From a virus (taxonomy: Duplodnaviria > Caudoviricetes): a stretch of DNA of 34,046 bases. The stretch covers positions 1 through 34,046 of IMG/VR virus record IMGVR_UViG_3300010398_000330. One strand, 5' to 3'. The notes under the pieces were generated by a model, which was not told the origin of the DNA, did not search any database, and worked only from the letters and a program-made list of their open reading frames with translations. The translations under genes and the position numbers were made by a program. Positions 10,828 through 34,046 of the stretch are shown piece after piece. Position 1 is the first letter of the stretch; each line of letters begins with the position of its first letter.

Positions 10828-12609
10828 ATGAAACTACCTGAAAAATTGAGGGTTGTCTGTTATCCCCGAGTGAGCTCGGGGGCGCAAGCAAAGGCCGACA
10901 CGATCGCGGCGCAGCGGATCTCGCTGCCCGAGTACGCGGCAACCAAGGCACACGAGGGCTGGGAGCTCGTGCGGCCCGTCGAGCACTACGAGGATAATGG
11001 CAAGTCGGCGTCGCACGATCTCGACGCCCGCGATGGATTTAAGCGCCTGCTTGCCGACGCCGCTGCCGGAGAATTCGATATCGTCTTGATCCGGTCCTTC
11101 ACCCGACTGACGCGTACACCAGACTGGAGCGAGCGGGCCGCGATCATCGGGCCGTTGCAGCGAGCGAAAGTCAAGCTGGCCGTGTCGGCGCAGGGACAGC
11201 TATTCGACCTCGATAGCCGTCACGGCGATTTGCAGGTGTCGATCTTTTTGTCGATCGCCGCCGCCGACCAAGCCGAGCGAGCGCGCAATTTCGCAGAGGG
11301 TCGGCGCCGGGTGATCGATGCCGGTCGGCGCGCCGCTGGTCAGCCGGTGTACGGTCTTAAGACCGTCAAGGGTGCATGGGATGTCGATCTGCAGCGGGCG
11401 GCGATCATCCTCGACGCCGCCCAGCGGATTGATGCAGGGGAATCCTGCTACTCAATCGAGCGCAGCCTTGACGCCGAGGGGATCCCGACGGGTCTTGCCG
11501 GCCATATTCGGTTGACCGGCCCGCGTGCCGGTCGGACGATCGTCGGATCTTGGCGCGGCCGACTGACGACGCTTTTGCGGAATCCCGCCTACCGCGGCGA
11601 AGCGATCCTGGACAAGGCGCGCGGCAAGACGGGCCCATGCCCCGTGATCGTGCCGCCCGATCTATGGCATCGGGTCCAGGCGCGGCTAGATGCGATCAAA
11701 GAGCGCCGGATCCAGATCGCGCCGCGCGCCCGGCAGTCGACGCTACTCGAAGGAATCATCCGATGCGAGTGCGGCGGCGACGGTAGAGTCAAAACCAATA
11801 CGATCACGCGCAAGCGTCCGGGCAAGTTCGGCGGCCGGGCGCCGACCGACGGGAACCGGGTCACGTACAGGTATTACGAATGCGAGACACGCAAGGGCGA
11901 CACAAGCAAGGCGCGCGCGCGCCGCGTAGCGCTCCGCCGGATCGGATCGACGTCGTGCGGGACCAAGGGGCACCGGATCGAAGAGCTTGACGCCCTGGTC
12001 TGGTCGGCCGTCGGCGCGTGGCTCGAGGAGGACAGGATCGGAGACACGGAACAAGGTGCGACCCTCGCGATCGCTGGGGAGGGCGAGGCAAGGATCGCGG
12101 CGGTCAAGGAGCAACTGGCATCCGCCGATGCCGCGATCGGCGCGATCGACCGGCGCATGGTGCGCGCGCAAACGGCCGACCTACCCGACCAAGTGTATGC
12201 CGAGACGATGGCCGATTTGCACGCAACCCGCAAGCGGCTTGTGGAGGACCGGGCGGTGCTGGGCGCCGAGCTCGCGTCCGCCGAGCTCGCCCTGGCCAAC
12301 GCCAGCGCCTACCGGGAAGGTCTAGCAGGGCTTCGGGCCAAGTACCGCGCCGTGACCTGCGCAGCCGATCGGCAGGCGTTCTTGCGGCTCTTGGCGACGC
12401 TCCGCGGGGGCAAACTCGTCACCCTCTTGCACGATGGAAACGTCGAATTGGTCGGCTTGCCTTTGCCCCGGAGCACTAACTCTCTGTCACCAGTCGATCC
12501 ATCGGGGCAACTAGCCAACGGCCCGATCATTAAGGTTTCGATCCCAATCGAGCCGCCCATCTGCATTGGATGCGGCGAGCGGCATCGTCCTACCGTCGAC
12601 TGCGTCTAA
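10828..12609 (+). CDS. Large serine recombinase (integrase)
   Basis: YPRVSS catalytic serine motif, RDGFKRLLADA..GEFDIVL..FTRLTR, recombinase domain (LLRNPAYRG), Zn ribbon (LLEGIIRCECG...YYEC...C), coiled coil. Confidence 0.95.
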   Translation: MKLPEKLRVVCYPRVSSGAQAKADTIAAQRISLPEYAATKAHEGWELVRPVEHYEDNGKSASHDLDARDGFKRLLADAAAGEFDIVLIRSFTRLTRTPDWSERAAIIGPLQRAKVKLAVSAQGQLFDLDSRHGDLQVSIFLSIAAADQAERARNFAEGRRRVIDAGRRAAGQPVYGLKTVKGAWDVDLQRAAIILDAAQRIDAGESCYSIERSLDAEGIPTGLAGHIRLTGPRAGRTIVGSWRGRLTTLLRNPAYRGEAILDKARGKTGPCPVIVPPDLWHRVQARLDAIKERRIQIAPRARQSTLLEGIIRCECGGDGRVKTNTITRKRPGKFGGRAPTDGNRVTYRYYECETRKGDTSKARARRVALRRIGSTSCGTKGHRIEELDALVWSAVGAWLEEDRIGDTEQGATLAIAGEGEARIAAVKEQLASADAAIGAIDRRMVRAQTADLPDQVYAETMADLHATRKRLVEDRAVLGAELASAELALANASAYREGLAGLRAKYRAVTCAADRQAFLRLLATLRGGKLVTLLHDGNVELVGLPLPRSTNSLSPVDPSGQLANGPIIKVSIPIEPPICIGCGERHRPTVDCV

Positions 12610-14387: not shown

Positions 14388-14765
14388 ATGGGGGATTCGG
14401 TTAGTGTCCTAACTCCAATTGCTCTGAATGCCGCCGAAGTCACCGACGAAGTTTGGGACAAGGTCGTTCGCCAGATGACGGAGTCCAGCGTCGAGGAAGT
14501 CAAGCCCGTCGTCATGCAGGTGATCCGGGACCGAATGATTCCGCGAGCGGAGCAAATCGCTCGAACGCTCGCCGCCGATCGAGGATTTCAGAAATGCTTA
14601 CACGAGCTGGCGATCTCGACGGTACTCGACGAGCTCACGACTAACCCCGACCTACAAAAGCAAATCCTCAGCATAAGCCGCGGCATCATCTCCGACGCCT
14701 TTAGCAAGGTGCAAGAGGAGCTTACCGGTTCCATCGCGCAAAAGATCCTCGGGGCGTTCCGATGA
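14388..14765 (+). CDS. Helical hypothetical protein (125 aa)
   Basis: GGAGG RBS, ATGA overlap downstream. Confidence 0.75.
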   Translation: MGDSVSVLTPIALNAAEVTDEVWDKVVRQMTESSVEEVKPVVMQVIRDRMIPRAEQIARTLAADRGFQKCLHELAISTVLDELTTNPDLQKQILSISRGIISDAFSKVQEELTGSIAQKILGAFR

Positions 14766-15892
14766 CAACGGCCAGTTTTGGCGACGTCCTTCGCGCCTTG
14801 CGCATGGAGCGAAAGCTTTCGCTCCGGGATCTGGCCGATCGCGTTGGCCGCAACGTCGCGGCGGTGCGCAGTTGGGAGGATGGTAACTCTTTCCCCATCG
14901 GTCAGGATCGCATTCGTCTGCAAAAATGCGGGCTCCGCAAGATCGAGAGTTACTGGCATCTGATCCCGAAGCTCCCATCGGCAAACGAGAAGGTCATCGC
15001 CACGGTCTTGACCCCCGTCGAGCCTTCGGCCCCGAAGCCAATGCCGGAGCCATCCGTCGAGCCGGAATCGCTACCGCTGCCGAACCTCGATGCCGCGCCA
15101 CCCGACAAGCCACCCGAACCGGCGGCGCCTTACGTTCCGGTCGCCCGTCCCGAATCCTGGCATCCGCTCCCCGATGAAGTGAGTGAGGCCGACGCCGACG
15201 CCGCCGAAGCCGACGCTGACGCCGCCGAGCGCAAAGCCAAGAAAGGATCGCCCATGTCGTCGAACACTTTCGGCAAAGCCCTAGCCGCGGCGCGGGCCGA
15301 GGAGGGGAAAACGCAAGTCCAGATCGCCAAGGAGATCGGGATCCACCCGATCACTTATGGTTATTGGGAGCAAGGGCGCGGTATGCCCATGCGCGACGAG
15401 CATCGCAAGCGCCTGATCAAACGCTATCCGTCGATCGCCAAGTTTTTGATAGACGTCAAGAGCGACGTCAAGAGCGATGAAGCGACGAAGAAGTGCGCCC
15501 GTTGCCAAGAGACGAAGCCACTAAGCGCATTCAACAAAGATGTTGCACACGGCGACGGCCGCGCCGTCTATTGCCGCGAGTGCCGCGCCGAGCTCAAGCG
15601 CGCCTGGCGAAAACGCGAGCAAAAGCCAGAGCCGGCCAAAGTTCCGACCAAAGTTGCAGCCAAAGTCGCGCGCAAGCCCGAGGACAAGCCGGCGAAGCCT
15701 TCGACGCTATCCGAGCTCGGCGCCCGGCTCGAGAAAGCCCTTGCCGCCGCCGAGACGGCACGGGCCCGCCTGGCCGAAGCCAAAGCCGCCGTAGCTTCCG
15801 CCGAGACGGCGGCGAAGGATGCCGACGCCGACGCCGACGAATGCATCGCCGGCATGCAGCAGGCGATGCAAGCGATGCGGGGAGCGTCCTAG
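14762..15892 (+). CDS. Multidomain DNA-binding protein: XRE HTH - Pro-rich linker - XRE HTH - C4 Zn finger - Ala-rich coiled coil
   Basis: FGDVLRALRMERKLSLRDLADRVG..WEDGNSFP; FGKALAAARAEEGKTQVQIAKEIG..WEQGRGMP; KKCARCQETKPLSAF..YCREC. Confidence 0.85.
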   Translation: MTTASFGDVLRALRMERKLSLRDLADRVGRNVAAVRSWEDGNSFPIGQDRIRLQKCGLRKIESYWHLIPKLPSANEKVIATVLTPVEPSAPKPMPEPSVEPESLPLPNLDAAPPDKPPEPAAPYVPVARPESWHPLPDEVSEADADAAEADADAAERKAKKGSPMSSNTFGKALAAARAEEGKTQVQIAKEIGIHPITYGYWEQGRGMPMRDEHRKRLIKRYPSIAKFLIDVKSDVKSDEATKKCARCQETKPLSAFNKDVAHGDGRAVYCRECRAELKRAWRKREQKPEPAKVPTKVAAKVARKPEDKPAKPSTLSELGARLEKALAAAETARARLAEAKAAVASAETAAKDADADADECIAGMQQAMQAMRGAS

Positions 15893-15898
15893 GCATCC

Positions 15899-16417
15899 AT
15901 GAGGGGAACGTTCAAGGAGCGCTTCTTCGCTCACTGCCGCGAGCTTCGCGACCATTTGATCTGGACTGGCGGCCGGCAATTTCGCCTCGGGGGCAAGAGC
16001 TCGCGCCGGGTGGCGCCGGCTCATGCGGCTTATCTCTTGCGCGAAGCGATCGAGACCATTCCCGACGGCATGATCATCCTACGCGTTTGCGCGCAAGTGG
16101 GATGTGTCCGGCATGTCGACATGTTCGATCCGTCCACTGCCGGTCGGATGAATTCGCCGGGCAAGCTCAGCGACGAGGAAGTGGCTTGGATTCGCGAGCT
16201 CCCCGATTTACGAAAACTATCGCCGCGCGCGCGCAGCCAAGCGCGGCGGGTCATTCTTCAAACATTGGACAATCGGGTATCGTGGCATACGGTTCAAATG
16301 ATACGGATCCCGACAAGTCCGAGGCGGCCGGCGATACGGCCGGCGTCGAGGATGCCGGTCAATATGCTTCGCGATCTGATTGAGGGGAAGGAGCTAACAT
16401 GGGTCGCAGCGAGTTAG
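15899..16417 (+). CDS. Degenerate HNH-endonuclease-like protein
   Basis: ERFF..LIWTG..AHAAYLL..IPDGMIILRVCAQVGCVRH..KLSDEEVAWIR follows the phage HNH scaffold but lacks the catalytic His and Asn. Confidence 0.6.
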   Translation: MRGTFKERFFAHCRELRDHLIWTGGRQFRLGGKSSRRVAPAHAAYLLREAIETIPDGMIILRVCAQVGCVRHVDMFDPSTAGRMNSPGKLSDEEVAWIRELPDLRKLSPRARSQARRVILQTLDNRVSWHTVQMIRIPTSPRRPAIRPASRMPVNMLRDLIEGKELTWVAAS

Positions 16418-16788
16418 TCATGCGGGTCCAATACTTCGGCGATCGATGGGACGCGCCGATGCTGGACGATGCCGTGCAGGTGGCGACGCCAGTCGGCGAG
16501 CCATGCCTTTATTGCCGCGAGCCGATCGTCGCCGGCGAGCAGGGCGCGATGGTCGTGCACATCTACGCCGCCCACGCCGCCGCTATTCGCCCGGCACATC
16601 GGGAATGTCACTTGCGGGCGGTCCTCGGCGGCATCGCGCACGTCCAAGGTCGGTGCACTTGCTGCGGCGGCCAGGTCGACCCGGATGATGGGTTGCCCTA
16701 CCGCGAATCGGCCCGGCGTGTTCTCGCGCACACGCAAAACGTTTCGCTGGAATACATCCTTAAATTGGCGAGGCAGCCGAAGCAATGA
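16399..16788 (+). CDS. Cys/His-rich putative metal-binding protein
   Basis: CLYC, HREC, H..GRCTCC; AAGGAG RBS before 16399 (16420 is an alternative start). Confidence 0.75.
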   Translation: MGRSELVMRVQYFGDRWDAPMLDDAVQVATPVGEPCLYCREPIVAGEQGAMVVHIYAAHAAAIRPAHRECHLRAVLGGIAHVQGRCTCCGGQVDPDDGLPYRESARRVLAHTQNVSLEYILKLARQPKQ

Positions 16789-17057
16789 TTTCGGAAACCC
16801 TTTATACGCGGGTCATTCCCGACGGTCGCATCATCGCCGTGATCCGGCTGACCTTTGGGCGAGCGCGTCTGACGATCGGCCGCGATATCTGGACCTATAA
16901 CGACGGCTGGTGATACGAGATTCCGAGCCTTGCCGTGCGCGAGGCCGAGAGGTGGGATCCGGTTGCCGAGGATGAACCGCGAGGATGGACCCGCCATCCG
17001 ACGAGCGGCCGGCGCCGGCCGGACGGTGATGTGGACAAAGAGTACATCGAAATGTAA
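16785..17057 (+). CDS. Candidate selenoprotein, 90 aa with in-frame TGA (codon 43) read as Sec
   Basis: MISETLYTRVIPDGRIIAVIRLTFGRARLTIGRDIWTYNDGW-U-YEIPSLAVREAERWDPVAEDEPRGWTRHPTSGRRRPDGDVDKEYIEM; ATGA overlap at the start; TAA 17055-17057 runs into the AAGGAG RBS of the next gene; SECIS-like hairpin follows the TGA. Confidence 0.7.
16919..16959 (+). other. Bacterial SECIS-like stem-loop
   Basis: Upper stem GCCUUGC (16927-33) / GCGAGGC (16939-45), loop CGUGC with GU at positions 2-3, 20 nt after the UGA; lower stem GAUUCC (16919-24) / GGGAUC (16954-59). Confidence 0.65.
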
Positions 17058-17067
17058 AGGAGAAACC

Positions 17068-17334
17068 ATGACGATCGATGATCTGAACTACGTGCTAAAG
17101 CACCGGTTGTTTTTCTCGCTGCGCTCGCCCGGCTCGACGGCCACATATGAATGGCAAGTGGTTATCGATGCGAGGCGGGAACATATTCGCTTGCGGCGTC
17201 AGGAGAATGAATTCTTGGCGAACAATGCTCGCATCATCACGGCACCGACGGCTATCGAAGCCTTGGCGCACGCCGCCAAGTTTCTGCGCGTCTACGACGC
17301 CGAGATCGATTTTAAGCGGACCGATGACAAATGA
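17068..17334 (+). CDS. Hypothetical protein (88 aa)
   Basis: AAGGAG RBS, ATG 17068, ATGA overlap downstream. Confidence 0.75.
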   Translation: MTIDDLNYVLKHRLFFSLRSPGSTATYEWQVVIDARREHIRLRRQENEFLANNARIITAPTAIEALAHAAKFLRVYDAEIDFKRTDDK

Positions 17335-17519
17335 GCATCTACTACAGCGGCTCAGCAAATATCCGTATGACAACAGCATCAATGGTCAGCTCGTCGTCGG
17401 TGATCTATATGACCACGCTGCCGCCGCCGAGACAAACCCCAGAAGAATTGCGCTGGCGCGATGCCGCCTATCGTGCCGCGTATTTTGGCCTGACCGCAAT
17501 ATCTCGAGCGTTGCGCTAG
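17331..17519 (+). CDS. Hypothetical protein (62 aa)
   Basis: ATGA overlap; fills the operon gap. Confidence 0.6.
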   Translation: MSIYYSGSANIRMTTASMVSSSSVIYMTTLPPPRQTPEELRWRDAAYRAAYFGLTAISRALR

Positions 17520-17528
17520 AGGGAAACC

Positions 17529-17777
17529 ATGACCGAGAATAGGCCACTATGGGGGGATTGCAACGAAGCCTATGAGGACGGGTATCGAGCGGGTCGCGCC
17601 GATGCGTTTGATGAGACGGCAAAGCTTCTCGACGATGAAGCGGAGCGACTACGGCAACGCGCGGAGCGCTCATACCGTACGGCCACTGTCGAGGGTGCGC
17701 TCGACGATGGCAGCCAGCTACTCGAAATGGCCGAGCGCATCCGCGCGCGGAAAGCCGATGTCATCGAACGATCGTAA
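17529..17777 (+). CDS. Hypothetical protein (82 aa)
   Basis: GAGG RBS; AYEDGYRAG motif and coiled coil. Confidence 0.7.
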   Translation: MTENRPLWGDCNEAYEDGYRAGRADAFDETAKLLDDEAERLRQRAERSYRTATVEGALDDGSQLLEMAERIRARKADVIERS

Positions 17778-17958
17778 ACGCTTCATCGACACGATGGCGC
17801 GCTGGATATGGGCCGAGATAAAGGCGAGGCGACTACTTGAAAGGCAAGGCGCGCAGGAGCTCGATCAAGCAAAGGAGAATGACCGCACACCAGAGCGGGA
17901 CCTTGCCGGCCGCCGACGCCGCCGCAAAGATGATCGCCAGAAGCGCGAGGACAAATAG
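17758..17958 (+). CDS. Basic hypothetical protein (66 aa), last gene of the rightward arm
   Basis: Overlaps the previous gene; ends 24 nt from the convergent virion operon. Confidence 0.5.
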   Translation: MSSNDRKRFIDTMARWIWAEIKARRLLERQGAQELDQAKENDRTPERDLAGRRRRRKDDRQKREDK

Positions 17959-18537: not shown

Positions 18538-20730
18538 CTATTTCATGGTTAGGCGCTGGCTTCCGGTGGGCGGATCGATCTTGCCCACCGTCTGAGGAGC
18601 GGGCGATTTGATCTTCGGCGCCGGCGGCTTCGGCGGCGGCGCGGCATAGGGCGCTTGCATGGCGGCGACGAACGCCGGTTTGGTCGTCGCGTCGACGTCC
18701 GGGCCGACGAACGTCGAAAGGGTCAGTCGCATCGGATACGAAAGCTTTTGCGCGACGCCCGGGTCGGAAAGCTTATCCATCAAAGCCTGTTCGATCCGAT
18801 TGGTGGTTTCCGGGTGGAGAGCCTTCGCCGTCTCGACGGTCTCGGGCATGAGAGTCCCGGAGCGGATCTCCTTAAGCAGGCGGAGCGGATCATTGGCCGC
18901 GGCGACGTAGCGGCCGAAGCTCTGTTTCTGCGAATCCGACGGCGGGATCTCTTTGCCGTTGATGCCCATGGTCATCGTCGGCGGGATCTTCGAGTTGAGA
19001 AAACTAATCGACAGTTGCCACTGATTGGTGACCTGCTTGGCGAGTTCGGGGTTGTACGCGGCGAGGGCTTGGAGTTCCTGGGCGAGCCGGGCTTGCGTGC
19101 CTTGCGGATCGGCGGCGGCTCTCTGGATCGAGCTCGTGACCGTTTCGTAATCGCTCGGGGCTTTGCCACCCTTGGCGGTTTTGAGCAAACCATGAACACC
19201 CTCGACGCCGGCGGCGGTCGCCACGTCGGAAAGCGCCGACATGGCCGACGCCGGCGGCTTGAGTTGCGTTAGAAGATTGGCCGCATTGTCGGCGATGCTG
19301 GTCGTGCTATCGGCAAACGCCCCGAGGATCTTTTGTAAGACCGGCTTGATCGTGCTATCGGCGGCTTCGCGGCCGAGCCAAGCGCCGATACCGCCGGGCA
19401 AAACCATATGACCGGCGGCGAGCCCGATGGTTTTGGACATCCGATCGAGCATGGGGGTTTTCGCCGGCGGCTCTTTCAGGGCATCGATCCGCGTATCGAT
19501 GGCATCGAGCCGCTCGGACTTCATGCTCTGCAGCTGGCCGATCTCATCTTCGAGCGCGCCGATCTTCTCGGACATCGACGCCGCGCGGCCGGAGAGCTCG
19601 GCGGTGCGCGCCGCCTGAAAGCTTCCGTTGGGATCGGAGAGCAGATTCTTCGGGAGCTTCTCGTCGATATTTTCGACTTGGGTTTTAAGCCGCCGGAGGG
19701 TCTCGAGCGTTTTCTTCGTGTTGCCGTTGGCTAGATCTTCCGCCAACCCTTCCGGGTCGCCCGCGAGATGCTCGAGGGTGCTGGCCGGCTTGCCGGCGGC
19801 TTTCCAGGCATCGGTCCCCTCGACGAGGGTTTTGCGCAAACGGAAATAATCTTGGCGCGTGTCTTCGTGGAGATCGGCGAGCTTGTCGGCGATCTCCGTC
19901 GATCTAGTCGCTTTCGCCGATTGGAATTCATCGGCGGCGACCTTGCGCGCGGCTTCGGCTTGCGGGAGATCCATTTTCGCGAGGTCTTCGTGGCCCGGCG
20001 TGATCCCCTGCGATCCCGTCTGTAGCTCATCCGATATCGCATCGCCGGCTTTCGTCAGCGCGCGGCCGGCTTTGTTTATGGCGCCGCCGATTGCCGACCC
20101 GGCCAGAGATAGCCCTCCGCCCAAAAGCGCGCCCGTACCGGCCCCGGCGAGCACGTTTTTGCCCAAATGCGCGGCGATGGTCTCCGCGGTCATCGGGTCT
20201 TTCGAAAGGGCTACATCCGAGATCGTCTGACCGACGCCGATCGCGCCACCCTCAAGACCAGTCCGTACGGCAGCGGCGCCGGCGCGCGCCAGGATCCCGG
20301 GCCCGCTGAATGCGGCAACGCCGGCCCGTTCGGCCAGTGAGCCGACGCCGGTTAAACCGAGCCCACCGGCTGCACCGACGATCTCGCCGACCTTGGAGAC
20401 GGGATTCCGCGCGGCGCGCTCGGCGACGCCCGGATCGCGGCCGAGGTAGACATCGGAAAGCCCGAATGTGCCGCTGCGCGCGACACCTTCGAGGAAGGCG
20501 CGACCTGGCTTATCGCCGTAGGCCTGCTGCTTGGCGCGCTCGTCGACTTCCTCGCGGGTCTCCGGGCGGAATCCCTTTGCGATAAGGTTGGCGACGGCGC
20601 CAGCCGGCACGGTGCCGCGCCAGCCGCCGGGGCCGACCATATTGACTTGACCGCCACCTTGGACGAGCTCGTCTTGATCGACGGGAACAGGATCGGAAGC
20701 GGGGGCGGGAGCGGGAACGGGATCGCTCAT
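18538..20730 (-). CDS. Large internal virion / DNA ejection protein (putative)
   Basis: Gly/Ala-rich helical segments (GVARSGTFGLSD, glycine zippers); position after the tail genes; ATGA overlap. Confidence 0.7.
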   Translation of the reverse strand: MSDPVPAPAPASDPVPVDQDELVQGGGQVNMVGPGGWRGTVPAGAVANLIAKGFRPETREEVDERAKQQAYGDKPGRAFLEGVARSGTFGLSDVYLGRDPGVAERAARNPVSKVGEIVGAAGGLGLTGVGSLAERAGVAAFSGPGILARAGAAAVRTGLEGGAIGVGQTISDVALSKDPMTAETIAAHLGKNVLAGAGTGALLGGGLSLAGSAIGGAINKAGRALTKAGDAISDELQTGSQGITPGHEDLAKMDLPQAEAARKVAADEFQSAKATRSTEIADKLADLHEDTRQDYFRLRKTLVEGTDAWKAAGKPASTLEHLAGDPEGLAEDLANGNTKKTLETLRRLKTQVENIDEKLPKNLLSDPNGSFQAARTAELSGRAASMSEKIGALEDEIGQLQSMKSERLDAIDTRIDALKEPPAKTPMLDRMSKTIGLAAGHMVLPGGIGAWLGREAADSTIKPVLQKILGAFADSTTSIADNAANLLTQLKPPASAMSALSDVATAAGVEGVHGLLKTAKGGKAPSDYETVTSSIQRAAADPQGTQARLAQELQALAAYNPELAKQVTNQWQLSISFLNSKIPPTMTMGINGKEIPPSDSQKQSFGRYVAAANDPLRLLKEIRSGTLMPETVETAKALHPETTNRIEQALMDKLSDPGVAQKLSYPMRLTLSTFVGPDVDATTKPAFVAAMQAPYAAPPPKPPAPKIKSPAPQTVGKIDPPTGSQRLTMK

Positions 20731-22526
20731 CGGCCCATCCACATTGACGGGGTCATAAACGGGCTCGTGAGCGGCCCAACGCCAAGCCCACTCTCCGCCG
20801 GCGGCGGCGGAGGCAAGGCCCGTCCGGTCGACCGCGTCGGCGCGATGGCACCGGTCATGGCTTTACCCTGCGCTTTCGCCGATTCCTTGGCGGCTTCCTC
20901 CTGCGACTGGAGAAAGTCTTGCGCATCTTTTTCTTCCTTCGTTGGCTCCGGCACCCAGGTCGCATTGCGATTGATGTTGTGATGCAAGTAATTATTGGCT
21001 TCTCTCTCTTGCTCTTCGCGCAATGATTGCCATGCAATCTCATCGGAATGAATGAGACTGGTAGGATCGGCCATGATTGGATCAATGATGTCTTTGTAGA
21101 CCTCGCTTGAAAGACCCTTGACGGCCATCTGGATGCGCAGGGCTTTCACCAGATTTCCGCCGGCATTCTTGAGACGTTCCCAATTTTCGCGCGAGGCCGG
21201 CATGCTGTCATAAATTCGGCGAGCCATTTCGACTCTCTTTGTGGCATCAATGACATCTTGGTGGTGCGCGAGTTCAATATTTGCCTTTTCGACGACCGTC
21301 TTTTCTCCGTGCCGCGCCGGCATGCCATTGGGTAGCGTGGCACCGAGAACGGTAAGAGGATCCGTCGGCTCGGCGCCCGCGCCCGCACCCTTACCAGCTG
21401 CTTTGGCTTGCGCCGCGGCGAGCCGCTCCTTGGCTTGCGCCTGGATATCTTCGAGCTCGGCGGCGCGCTTCGGCTCGGCTTCCTCGTATATCCGCTTCGT
21501 GAGCTCGAATTTCCTCTGTTCCAGACCGACCCCCGCCGCCGCCGCCTGCGCATGGATATCGGCGACCCGATTCGCGTGATCCTGGTTGTAAAGCGTTTGC
21601 GCTTCCTTGGCGAGGTTGCCTTTTGCTTGCGCCTCTAGTTGCTGGGCTTTGGCCATGGCCTCCGGCGAGCCCGTCGCTGCCGCGTAGTTCTTAGCTTCAT
21701 TGATCTGCAGATTCCAAAGCGCGACGCGCGTCAGATGCCGCGCTTCGGCGTCGTCGCGACCTAGGGCGATTTGCTGCTGCAGGAGCGTATTTTTGGCGCT
21801 GAGGCCGGCGCGCCGGTTTGAAAGATCTTCGACTTGCGCGCGGATATCGTCGTCGATGGCTTTGTTCATGATCTCATATGCGGTATTGGTCGTATGCGTG
21901 CGCGCGCCCGCATAGCCGCCGACGCCAATCGCGATGGCGCCGAGGAGCTTTTGCAAAGTCGACTGATTGGCGACCAGCCGATTCGGATCGACTTTCGTGT
22001 TGGCGATCTGATCCGCTTCGGCGTAAAGGTCTTTCATATGCGCGCGGGCTTGGTCCCGGGCCTCTTGATCAATCGCTTGGTCTTTCTGGATTTGCTCGCG
22101 ATAGGCCAGATTTGCCGCGGTCGTTCCTTCGGTCTCGCGCCGGATGCCCTCCGCTTTCGCTGCGGCTTCGGCGCGGATGCCGGCCCGCTCCTCTTCGCTC
22201 GCCTGCCCCATCATCTGCAGTGTCTGGCCGAGCGACGGTATCGCCATGCCACGCGCCGCGGCGCGCGCCACCGGCCGTTGCAGCGGCATAGGCGTCGGCG
22301 TCGGCGCTGGCCGTTGCGGCAAGAGGTCGGAAATGGCCGGCGGGGGCGGCGGCGGTATATTGATCCCCGTCGGGGATTGGAGCGCACCGACGTCGATCGC
22401 CGGCGGCTGAAAACCCGGTTGCGATCCGAGATCAAACGGTGGCGTTTGCAGTTGTGGCGCGGGGCCCGCCGGCGGCACGACGCCCGGATAAAGGATGCGA
22501 AGAAGATCTTGGTTAGTCGGCGCCAT
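20727..22526 (-). CDS. Internal virion / ejection protein (putative, 599 aa)
   Basis: Pro-rich N-terminus, long coiled coils, hydrophobic LLGAIAIGVGGYAG segment; TAATG coupling. Confidence 0.7.
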   Translation of the reverse strand: MAPTNQDLLRILYPGVVPPAGPAPQLQTPPFDLGSQPGFQPPAIDVGALQSPTGINIPPPPPPAISDLLPQRPAPTPTPMPLQRPVARAAARGMAIPSLGQTLQMMGQASEEERAGIRAEAAAKAEGIRRETEGTTAANLAYREQIQKDQAIDQEARDQARAHMKDLYAEADQIANTKVDPNRLVANQSTLQKLLGAIAIGVGGYAGARTHTTNTAYEIMNKAIDDDIRAQVEDLSNRRAGLSAKNTLLQQQIALGRDDAEARHLTRVALWNLQINEAKNYAAATGSPEAMAKAQQLEAQAKGNLAKEAQTLYNQDHANRVADIHAQAAAAGVGLEQRKFELTKRIYEEAEPKRAAELEDIQAQAKERLAAAQAKAAGKGAGAGAEPTDPLTVLGATLPNGMPARHGEKTVVEKANIELAHHQDVIDATKRVEMARRIYDSMPASRENWERLKNAGGNLVKALRIQMAVKGLSSEVYKDIIDPIMADPTSLIHSDEIAWQSLREEQEREANNYLHHNINRNATWVPEPTKEEKDAQDFLQSQEEAAKESAKAQGKAMTGAIAPTRSTGRALPPPPPAESGLGVGPLTSPFMTPSMWMGR

Positions 22527-27535: not shown

Positions 27536-28261
27536 TTACACGTAGACCTCAGCACTATACATGCGCAGGGTTTGACCGGCGTTCGGAGGCATATCGACGT
27601 CGAGGTAATGGCTCCCTGCCGCTCCGCCGATCGTCTGACTGGTGAAAGTCAGGGTCAGCGTCTGATCCGTGCCGGCGAGTGCGCTGGTCGTCGACGCGAT
27701 GCTTGTGATCACACCGGCGGTTGTGCGGACGATGACTTGCACCGTGATCACGATGGCCGCATCGCCGTGAACATAGAAGACGACTTTCGAGAATGTCTGG
27801 CCGACCGGCAGCGGGATCCCTCCCATAAGCCGCCGGCTAATTGAGCTCCCGGCGGCCGCACCGTTCACCCACCCGACGACGAAACTGAAAACCAGACCGT
27901 TGGCGTTGCGCCAGTCCATGCAGTTGAATGCGGCGCCGTCCATGTCCAGAAGCTTGGCGCCAGCCGTCGTGACCACGATCGGCGCTACGGCCGTCGTCGC
28001 GCCGGTCAGTGACGCGCCGGAGATCGTCGGACTGGTTAGCGTGCCGCCGGTTATCGTCGGCGAGGTAATCGTCGGCGTGGCGATTGTCGGGCTCGATAGC
28101 GTCGCATGCGTCAGGGTAACGCCGTCGATGGTCGTCGCTTCCAGCGCTTCCTTGACCTCGCGATCCCAGGCGCGCCGCTGATCCCAATACGTAGCGGTCG
28201 GACTACCCTTGAGAACCTCCGCCTGCGCCGTGCGCATGGTTTGCCCAATGCGGCCGGTCAT
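27536..28261 (-). CDS. Tail fibre/needle-like protein with TxTSPTI repeats
   Basis: TLSSPTIATPTITSPTITGGTLTSPTISG; ATGA overlap sets the start at 28261. Confidence 0.65.
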   Translation of the reverse strand: MTGRIGQTMRTAQAEVLKGSPTATYWDQRRAWDREVKEALEATTIDGVTLTHATLSSPTIATPTITSPTITGGTLTSPTISGASLTGATTAVAPIVVTTAGAKLLDMDGAAFNCMDWRNANGLVFSFVVGWVNGAAAGSSISRRLMGGIPLPVGQTFSKVVFYVHGDAAIVITVQVIVRTTAGVITSIASTTSALAGTDQTLTLTFTSQTIGGAAGSHYLDVDMPPNAGQTLRMYSAEVYV

Positions 28262-28983
28262 CGCCAAGGCCACCAATCGGCCGGGTCCCATGCCCCGAAC
28301 TGGCCGTAGTAATCGCCATCGCCGTACCAGCCGGCGCGGCGGTGCCGCATGGTCAAGACGATCCGCTTCGCCCGATTGAGCGACCGCATTTGAACTTCGG
28401 CGTCGATCCGCTCGTCGAGCTCCTTGCGTTCGAGCCGCAAATCCGTCGTCTCGCCTTCCCATTTCATGACGGCACGGATCGCGGCGTCGAGGACGACGGC
28501 TTCCTCCCAACCACAAACCCCGTCGAGCACATCGGTGTCATTGATGAGATCGGCCGGCGGCGCGATGTAGATGTGCCGATAGGTGCCGCCGACCATCGGC
28601 GCGGGATAGAGGATCAGATTGCCGCCGGCCAGGCGGTAACAAAGCGAATACCCACCATAGGTACCAAGCTGTATCGTGTGGATCTCGCGGATATCGATCT
28701 CCCAAAGCGGATGCCAAAGCGATCCCTGGAAGTAATCGACCCGCTGCGTCGAAAAATGATCGCTCGGCAGCGTATAGGTATCGACCCCGGCAAGCGCGGT
28801 TATCGTCTGCGTCGTCTCCGGCGGGAAGCCGAGACCCGGCGCCACGAGCTTCGCGTAATAGCGCGCGTACGACGACGAGATGCGCTTATTGAGCTCGAGA
28901 TCGGATAAAGCGCGCATTTGCTCGGCGTCGACGAGCTCGCGAACCCGATCGCGAATCTGCGCTAGGGTATAGGTCCGGGCCAT
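28258..28983 (-). CDS. Head-to-tail adaptor protein
   Basis: TLAQIRDRVRELVD, YTLPSD, LILYPAP, WEEAVVLDAA; position between the capsid and nozzle genes. Confidence 0.75.
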   Translation of the reverse strand: MARTYTLAQIRDRVRELVDAEQMRALSDLELNKRISSSYARYYAKLVAPGLGFPPETTQTITALAGVDTYTLPSDHFSTQRVDYFQGSLWHPLWEIDIREIHTIQLGTYGGYSLCYRLAGGNLILYPAPMVGGTYRHIYIAPPADLINDTDVLDGVCGWEEAVVLDAAIRAVMKWEGETTDLRLERKELDERIDAEVQMRSLNRAKRIVLTMRHRRAGWYGDGDYYGQFGAWDPADWWPWR

Positions 28984-32711: not shown

Positions 32712-34046
32712 TTAGGCGGCTTGCGCCGGGGCCGGCGGCGGCGCATTCTGCGGGGCCGGAGCGGCGCCAGGCGGTGGCCCGGCAACCGGGCCGGCCGGCG
32801 CGCCGATGCCGGCTTGATACGGCACGGCCGCCATCCCGACCTGCTGCGGGGCCTGCGCAGACGGGAGAAGTTGCTGCGCGCGTACCATCCACATCTGCAA
32901 GAGGTCGAGGATGTCGGGCGGCGCGCCGGAGCGACGGGCCATCAAATACGCCGACTGCACTCGAGCGATACCCATGTGCAAATCCATGAACGGTTCCGGC
33001 GGCCGCCAGATCCCGTCATAGAGATCCTCGATCTCGGCCTCGATATCCTCGAGCGCAGCGGTGGCCACGTCGAGGGCCCGCTCGACGTCCGGGATCCCCC
33101 ACAGTCGAAGAATCTCCTCCGGCTGCAAGGCGCCGGTATTGGCGAGCTCGATGGCGAGCTGGCGCATACCGGCCGGGGTTCGCGACAGAGCCGACGCCGG
33201 CTCGATGCGAAGTACGTACATATCTTCGTCGAGATCGACTTCGCTCCACTTGATTTTTTTGGCGAGGTTCCGGGAATTCCAAAAAGCCGTTACGTCTTGA
33301 TTGCGCCCGTAAAGCTCCTTAGCCAGGGCGATGATCATGCGCGCGGCGCAGATCTTTAGCCGCTCGATCTCGGCTTTCTGGGTCGTCAGGCGGCTCGCCT
33401 GGATATCGGTCCACTCACGAAGCGCCGCGCCGCTATCGAGCCCGACGGGTTTCATGCTGCGCGCGGCCATATCCGGGATGCCGGAATAGCGTTGCGCATC
33501 TGCTTTGAGTTGCTCCTTGTATTGATAGATCTCGGGCTTGACGGCTTGCCACGTCGGCAGGATCGGCGGCTTCGACGAATAGGGGATCGCCTTACTCGGA
33601 TCGTCGTCGAGCTTATTGGTCAGGAGCAAATCGGACTTGTGCACGAAGAGCCGTTGATTGGCGAACAAAGCGTGTGATAGATGAATGTTGTCGTTCGTGC
33701 GATTGACGGCCAACTGATAGCTGACGAGCTCTTCGGCGAGCCCGCAACCGTAGAAGCCGGTCAAGCGCTGCACCCAGCGGAAGGTGACGAACGGGAAAAA
33801 GTCGCGCGTATATTTCTCGTCGGTCAGCGTCGCGGTATCGATGGCGACCACGCGCCGCTGCGACTTCAGATGCCACGCTTCGATCACAATGATCTGGTTC
33901 GGCTCGAGCTTTTGCAGCACTGTCCACGACGGGTCTTTCAGATGCGCGCGGTCGATATCGTCGGCGAAGTCGGGATATTTCGCTTTCAGCACGTCTTTGT
34001 CGACGAAACGCCGCTGCGCGATCTGGATCGGCTCGCACGATCGGCA
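32712..34046 (-). CDS. Portal protein (5-prime end outside the window)
   Basis: Frame is open to the window edge; FPFVTFRW..GFYGCGLAEEL..YQ, SGAALRE motifs; Pro/Ala tail. Confidence 0.85.
   Translation of the reverse strand, partial: CRSCEPIQIAQRRFVDKDVLKAKYPDFADDIDRAHLKDPSWTVLQKLEPNQIIVIEAWHLKSQRRVVAIDTATLTDEKYTRDFFPFVTFRWVQRLTGFYGCGLAEELVSYQLAVNRTNDNIHLSHALFANQRLFVHKSDLLLTNKLDDDPSKAIPYSSKPPILPTWQAVKPEIYQYKEQLKADAQRYSGIPDMAARSMKPVGLDSGAALREWTDIQASRLTTQKAEIERLKICAARMIIALAKELYGRNQDVTAFWNSRNLAKKIKWSEVDLDEDMYVLRIEPASALSRTPAGMRQLAIELANTGALQPEEILRLWGIPDVERALDVATAALEDIEAEIEDLYDGIWRPPEPFMDLHMGIARVQSAYLMARRSGAPPDILDLLQMWMVRAQQLLPSAQAPQQVGMAAVPYQAGIGAPAGPVAGPPPGAAPAPQNAPPPAPAQAA

Follow-up and report, generated by a model that had tools for sequence, protein, structure and literature searches.

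An in-frame UGA codon and a predicted SECIS hairpin point to a selenocysteine-containing protein in a family of phage genes

Gene, reading frame and genomic context

Is the TGA triplet at positions 16911-16913 of this phage DNA the end of a gene or a codon within it? The window, that is the whole stretch of DNA analysed, comprises the 34,046 nucleotides of the IMG/VR record IMGVR_UViG_3300010398_000330, a linear record of a phage genome that is 87% complete. An ORF of its + strand starts at ATG 16785, reaches the TGA at codon 43 in the context Y-N-D-G-W-*-Y and then stays open for 47 codons up to TAA 17055-17057. Read through the TGA, it covers 16785-17057 (273 nt) and codes for 90 amino acids with the motifs W-[U/C]-Y and EPxGWxRHPxSGRRRPxGD of an unnamed phage family. 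An earlier note on this DNA proposed that the TGA is a selenocysteine (Sec) codon served by a hairpin immediately downstream and by machinery borrowed from the host. The comparison of homologous sequences argues strongly for this reading. UGA43 is very probably decoded as Sec by the host machinery, guided by a predicted bacterial SECIS hairpin, to give a 90-residue selenoprotein. Such decoding is supported by the alternation of UGA and Cys codons at this position, by conservation on both sides of it and by a hairpin that is found only in the UGA forms. The locus most likely represents a known decoding mechanism in a previously undescribed phage family.

The gene arrangement described in the earlier note is present in the sequence in all its parts. 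The ATG at 16785 shares an ATGA with the TGA of the upstream gene, a small Cys/His-rich ORF (16399-16788, + strand), and this stop/start overlap likely couples translation of the two ORFs. The small genes around 16785-17057 are coupled through overlaps. The terminal TAA runs into an AAGGAG ribosome-binding site followed by the ATG of the next gene at 17068 (site and start 17057-17070, gene 17068-17334, + strand), and 154 nt would be left over if the ORF ended at TGA43. Homologues of the upstream Cys/His-rich ORF are found directly upstream in locus L042 and a few kb off in the phage with a TAG codon (L242). No conserved neighbour of the family gene was found among 76 flanking ORFs inspected; the neighbours vary and give no functional clue.

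The genome is podovirus-like, with a capsid that has no match among cultured phages. It codes for a serine recombinase (10828-12609), and the phage is likely temperate. The 376-residue product of 14762-15892 combines two helix-turn-helix domains with a stretch that resembles endonuclease VII, the region 18538-20742 has a weak match to virion RNA polymerase, and an adaptor and a portal resembling those of SU10 are encoded at 28258-28983 and 32712-33992, respectively.

One objection to decoding of the TGA is that it arose by nonsense mutation of an accessory gene which the phage can do without, or by an assembly error. In the assembly of the probable source run the locus lies on a single contig of depth 43 without any difference, and a contig ~85% identical, which comes from another sequencing run, retains it; as far as contigs can show, TGA43 is not an assembly slip. 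In this near relative TGA, frame and terminal TAA are all preserved, and of its codons downstream of the TGA 32 are identical, 7 synonymous and 8 changed. A pseudogene would suit a variable neighbourhood, the small-ORF cluster being one in which two small stretches (window 17330-17561 and 17609-17831) are skipped or replaced in the contig of the related run X2, and a single change leads from TGC to TGA. Against this stand the recurrence of TGA at the very same codon in other phages and the fact that the easier TGG-to-stop changes are never seen (next section). Codon scans, hairpin shuffles and the codon comparison with the near relative refute both the pseudogene and the assembly error, which are left with a negligible probability.

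TGA and cysteine codons alternate at position 43

Viral loci of the family were collected with patterns that leave codon 43 free. These patterns require several fixed residues and thus sample the core of the family, not the whole of it; duplicates were merged ahead of counts (L331 and the X2 contig, which start at the same base, were counted once). In the 115 viral loci codon 43 is TGA (45), TGC (41), TGT (20) or TAG (1), and otherwise codes for Asp (3), Glu (3), Met (1) or Thr (1), while TGG and TAA do not occur. Cys is therefore encoded in 61 of the 70 loci without TGA. All 115 loci are free of any further stop within -30 to +35 codons of codon 43. The alternation of TGA and Cys codons at one position across many phages is thereby established. 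A second pattern, specific for TGA, led to 51 viral stretches which all translate as family members with 42-60 open codons past the TGA. It is also matched by ~290 metagenome stretches; 118 of the 120 that were fetched passed, and the two loci left out are cut by contig ends.

The earlier note had named a W-C-Y motif in homologous phage proteins. Cys is indeed the commonest residue of this column among 153 retrieved protein homologues (100), a set obtained with a query that carried Cys at position 43, but it is not invariant: 53 homologues have another residue, mostly Asp (21), followed by Glu (5), Trp (4) and others. Trp, which that note regarded as an argument against Sec, is thus present in 4 of the 153 homologues and in none of the 115 viral loci.

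These few Trp residues are what could favour a genome-wide code in which UGA specifies Trp or Gly (tables 4 or 25). The behaviour of TGA elsewhere speaks against such a code. W57 and W68 are both encoded by TGG in 119 of 119 loci (the number returned from 123 stored stretches by a scan that permitted stops at these positions), and the window is devoid of tRNA genes. TGA ends 20 of the 49 long ORFs of the window and 238 of 410 ORFs around the 51 TGA loci, and it is the terminal stop of the family gene itself in 32 of these 51. With TGA unused at ordinary Trp codons and common as a stop, a phage recoded for opal (code 4 or 25) is ruled out, the chance left to it being practically nil. The earlier note was correct in dismissing global recoding: TGA is the commonest stop.

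The hairpin downstream of the stop codon

The upper stem of the predicted bacterial SECIS and its loop occupy 16927-16945 (+ strand). Seven base pairs (16927-16933/16939-16945) close the apical loop CGUGC (16934-16938), which begins 20 nt past the UGA and places GU at +22/+23 after it; this 5-nt loop subtype comprises 14 distinct cases. Alone, the stem folds at -10.3 kcal/mol. A loop of 5 nt, a stem of 7 bp, G at loop position 2, a spacing of 20 nt and this energy lie within the bSECIS constraints, namely a loop of 3-9 nt, a stem of 4-16 bp, a G as first or second loop nucleotide, a spacing of 16-37 nt and at most -7.5 kcal/mol (PMC13188914), a geometry that discriminates weakly when considered alone. 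The near relative has a synonymous change, T to C at 16931, by which one U.G of the stem becomes C-G. The earlier note had added a lower stem of 6 bp (16919-16924/16954-16959, within 16919-16959, + strand). It can form but is not conserved: it is missing from the family consensus, and the near relative has lost its outer pair.

Taken alone, the hairpin of this phage is near chance. The fold of its 60-nt segment has z = -0.46 and a minimum-energy form with a different upper register, the pairing probability of the 7-bp stem varies with the context from 0.41 to 0.71, and a SECIS-like stem of at least 7 bp follows 38 of the 785 TGA triplets of the genome. No Rfam match was found in the window.

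The pattern across the family is far above chance. Hairpins were counted over distinct 45-nt segments, 162 with TGA and 81 with Cys codons. A stem of at least 4 bp in a fixed register together with GU at +22/+23 is present in 129 of the TGA segments vs none of the Cys segments; many of the 30 TGA segments that lack a stem of at least 4 bp in this register have a shifted one. The mean stem of the TGA forms is 5.5 bp, compared to 2.93 +/- 0.14 (maximum 3.43) in 1000 synonymous shuffles, while the Cys forms have a mean of 1.67 vs 1.65 when shuffled. For the free third-position pair +18:+27, pairing is seen in 126 of 140 TGA forms (a subset selected for its loop size; expectation 42%) vs 37 of 81 Cys forms. 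Covariation analysed on 50 aligned sequences reveals two-sided changes in 5 of 7 pairs and a score of 0.409 vs 0.170 for shuffled and 0.06-0.18 for slid alignments, counts that are inflated by the relatedness of the sequences. These data demonstrate that the hairpin is selected at the RNA level and in the stop codon forms only. TGA plus hairpin in other genomes, which the earlier note had named as a check, is thus found.

GGUC (92) and AGUU (17) are the loops seen most often and match those of Escherichia coli fdhF and of two Sec-type formate dehydrogenase genes in the Bryobacteraceae genome described in the next section. Regarding the six Asp or Glu forms (L400, L429, L438, L451, L470 and L482), five are below the strength of the GU hairpin signature of TGA forms, and none has a GU-loop stem of at least 4 bp.

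Selection on the hairpin has a price in protein sequence, as it fixes Val51 in the TGA forms: of the 162 TGA segments 147 have GT at +22/+23, compared to 5 of the 81 with Cys codons. This cost, the tolerance of column 43 to Asp, Glu and other residues, and the overlaps that couple adjacent genes would all fit a UGA and SECIS that work chiefly as a selenium- or host-sensing gate of expression, the identity of residue 43 mattering little. A gate of this type is compatible with Sec insertion. It could, however, sit anywhere if it were only a gate, and UGA occurs solely at a column dominated by Cys, with no other in-frame stop in the 115 loci; we consider it unlikely, albeit worth keeping in view, that gating is the main role of the codon.

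Hosts and their selenocysteine machinery

In bacterial genomes, 27 of 46 loci are true members of the family, 8 with TGA and 19 with Cys, and the 19 others were dropped as chance matches. SelB scores over the cut-off in 5 of the 8 TGA genomes vs 6 of the 19 Cys genomes (p = 0.21), most TGA contigs being merely binned with their genomes. The five SelB-positive TGA genomes also have a canonical tRNA-Sec(UCA), selA and selD (selA and selD were searched in these five only). One of them, the Bryobacteraceae genome G005, has its TGA member within a prophage that is contiguous with host genes: the family gene lies at ~42.6 kb of the contig, preceded by phage genes, housekeeping genes start at ~46 kb, and GC drops from 0.63 to 0.58. 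This genome codes for selA, selB, selC(UCA) and selD. It is the one clear prophage case, the other contigs being phage-like or short and possibly misbinned. Note that L173 and L187 show the same gene segment on 83-kb contigs in genomes labelled as a proteobacterium and as Gemmatimonadetes; one or both are probably misbinned phages.

The earlier note had seen no gene for SelA, SelB or tRNA-Sec in the window. No tRNA gene was found there, nor a selD in this genome (87% complete); no tRNA-Sec over the cut-off was found in 50 phage records, and ARAGORN, applied to the 10 best-scoring loci, gave no tRNA with the anticodon UCA. In one phage with a TGA form (L226:1497-1573) it does call a tRNA, of anticodon CUA and labelled Pyl. 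A tRNA-SeC has been predicted elsewhere, in Basilisk and three Bacillus phages related to it (PMC6145125). The proposed borrowing of host SelA, SelB and tRNA-Sec is supported for the host of a relative, G005, while for the phage under study host prediction via integrase and capsid found no host.

The same hairpin might in some hosts direct insertion of another amino acid at UGA43, either Cys by a selC*-type tRNA-Cys(UCA) or a different residue by a suppressor tRNA. Cys is after all the common alternative at the column, and a tRNA-Cys with UCA anticodon plus a second selB in some delta-proteobacteria, as well as possible suppressor tRNAs in Acidobacteria, are described in PMC5389517. In that study these genomes have the complete Sec apparatus as well. 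Moreover, the five strong-match genomes of the present analysis have the canonical tRNA-Sec(UCA), the family loops match the SECIS of Sec-type formate dehydrogenases, and TGG is absent from codon 43 in the 115 viral loci. Insertion of Cys or of a suppressor residue is consequently given very little credence.

The only TAG at codon 43 in the viral loci belongs to L067 (record G077, - strand, codon at 304-306 counted from the + end of its match). It retains a 7-bp hairpin with the loop GGUC in a phage of 72% GC whose terminase is nearest to those of Gordonia and Mycobacterium phages, as in actinophages. UAG-Sec has been reported in Geodermatophilaceae (PMC5330540), and the codon of L067 is possibly a UAG read as Sec. 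The likeness to the Geodermatophilaceae lies in a TAG at the Sec column, the hairpin of the family and the actinophage-like genome; L067 differs in being a single case whose host is not assignable, the best tRNA-Trp match being 85%.

Protein family and putative function

The read-through product matches 828 representatives (E up to 0.001). Its most conserved residues, W57, P65, G67, W68, R70, R76, R78, G81 and E86, all lie downstream of the TGA, and Asp40, Glu64 and His71 are conserved too; conservation on both sides of codon 43, a check named in the earlier note, is thus found. The family has no model in Pfam, NCBIfam or PHROG, is absent, by motif or profile, from 119 listed prokaryotic selenoprotein families, and a search for related loci with the single protein gave no match. 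No fused longer forms were found, which is weak evidence. The Cys form is present in the cultured phages Phosso of Sinorhizobium (L541) and CcrBL9 (L542, gp257c) and C2 (L543, gp253c) of Caulobacter, 3 of 12 matching records having been translated. A quick tree with weak support, which includes the residues overlapping the hairpin, groups 53 of 57 TGA rows within one weak half and implies 8 label changes; no direction of change is claimed.

The structure model, a confident one (pLDDT 94), consists of four main strands and a helix, with residue 43 on the fourth strand. Fold comparison gave no clear match to known folds, no solved structure of a relative was found, and matches in the atlas searched are unnamed clusters only. 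The WGR domain (PF05406) resembles the model in its layout of strands plus helix (rmsd 4.3-4.5 over 61-62 residues, Z 4.5-4.7) but these Z values are at background level and hhalign against a 10-sequence profile gives a probability of 4%, leaving homology unsupported.

The 90-residue product has no Cys at all, and UxxC and CxxU motifs are absent. The lack of a second Cys and of such motifs, the replacement of Cys by Asp or Glu and the availability of Asp40, Glu64 and His71 as partners lead us to favour, weakly, a small accessory protein, encoded in the early region, whose exposed Sec43 works singly as a nucleophile or metal ligand, a role which is a possibility more than an expectation. Binding of nucleic acids through the tail, which is rich in Trp and Arg, and redox activity of the thiol type would each be somewhat less probable, and a mainly regulatory gate is the least favoured role. 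This ranking is a judgement from residue patterns.

Decoding and relation to known systems

According to established Sec biology, SelB of the host would bind the hairpin loop and bring Sec-tRNA to UGA43, where selenium would be inserted. The full-length 90-residue protein would then be made only in a Sec-competent host supplied with selenium, and a 42-residue fragment otherwise. We are nearly evenly divided on, and lean slightly away from, the broader proposition of a virus-specific selenoprotein family that extends over hundreds of phage contigs and many genome sizes, has its codon tuned to the host (mostly UGA, UAG in an actinobacterial host, Cys where Sec is not used) and yields a selenium-gated product. 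If true, phages exploit the Sec decoding of their hosts, gene callers truncate such genes at the UGA, and the family provides a sequence marker for Sec-using hosts.

No phage-encoded selenoprotein was found in the literature searched, which consists mainly of openly available main texts. Neither phage nor virus nor viral occurs as a word in the 2026 inventory that lists 119 selenoprotein families of prokaryotes (PMC13188914), and another study states that the families examined, a few metalloproteins aside, have no or very few viral sequences (PMC9402790).

The phage gene is closest in design to bacterial genes with a SECIS inside the ORF, for which a consensus model is available (PMC13188914). 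It shares with E. coli fdhF an in-frame UGA, Cys homologues, G at loop position 2, a spacing in the 20-nt range and, in its commonest family form, the loop GGUC. It differs in being encoded by phages or prophages, in a spacing of 20 nt vs 18 nt, and in having neither a bulge nor a redox motif. The viral selenoproteins described in the literature consulted are peroxidases of poxviruses, namely the glutathione peroxidases of molluscum contagiosum virus and fowlpox virus (PMC8310308). They too are virus genes dependent on the Sec machinery of the host, but are captured host enzymes with a eukaryotic SECIS, whereas the phage family has a bacterial SECIS and no known cellular counterpart. Reading of stop codons as sense is familiar in phages, some recoded phages reading TGA as Trp. 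In others TAG is read as Gln (PMC9523058). The phage studied here resembles them in that a stop is probably read as sense, and is unlike them in that this concerns one codon of one gene, in a genome where TGA is still the commonest stop.
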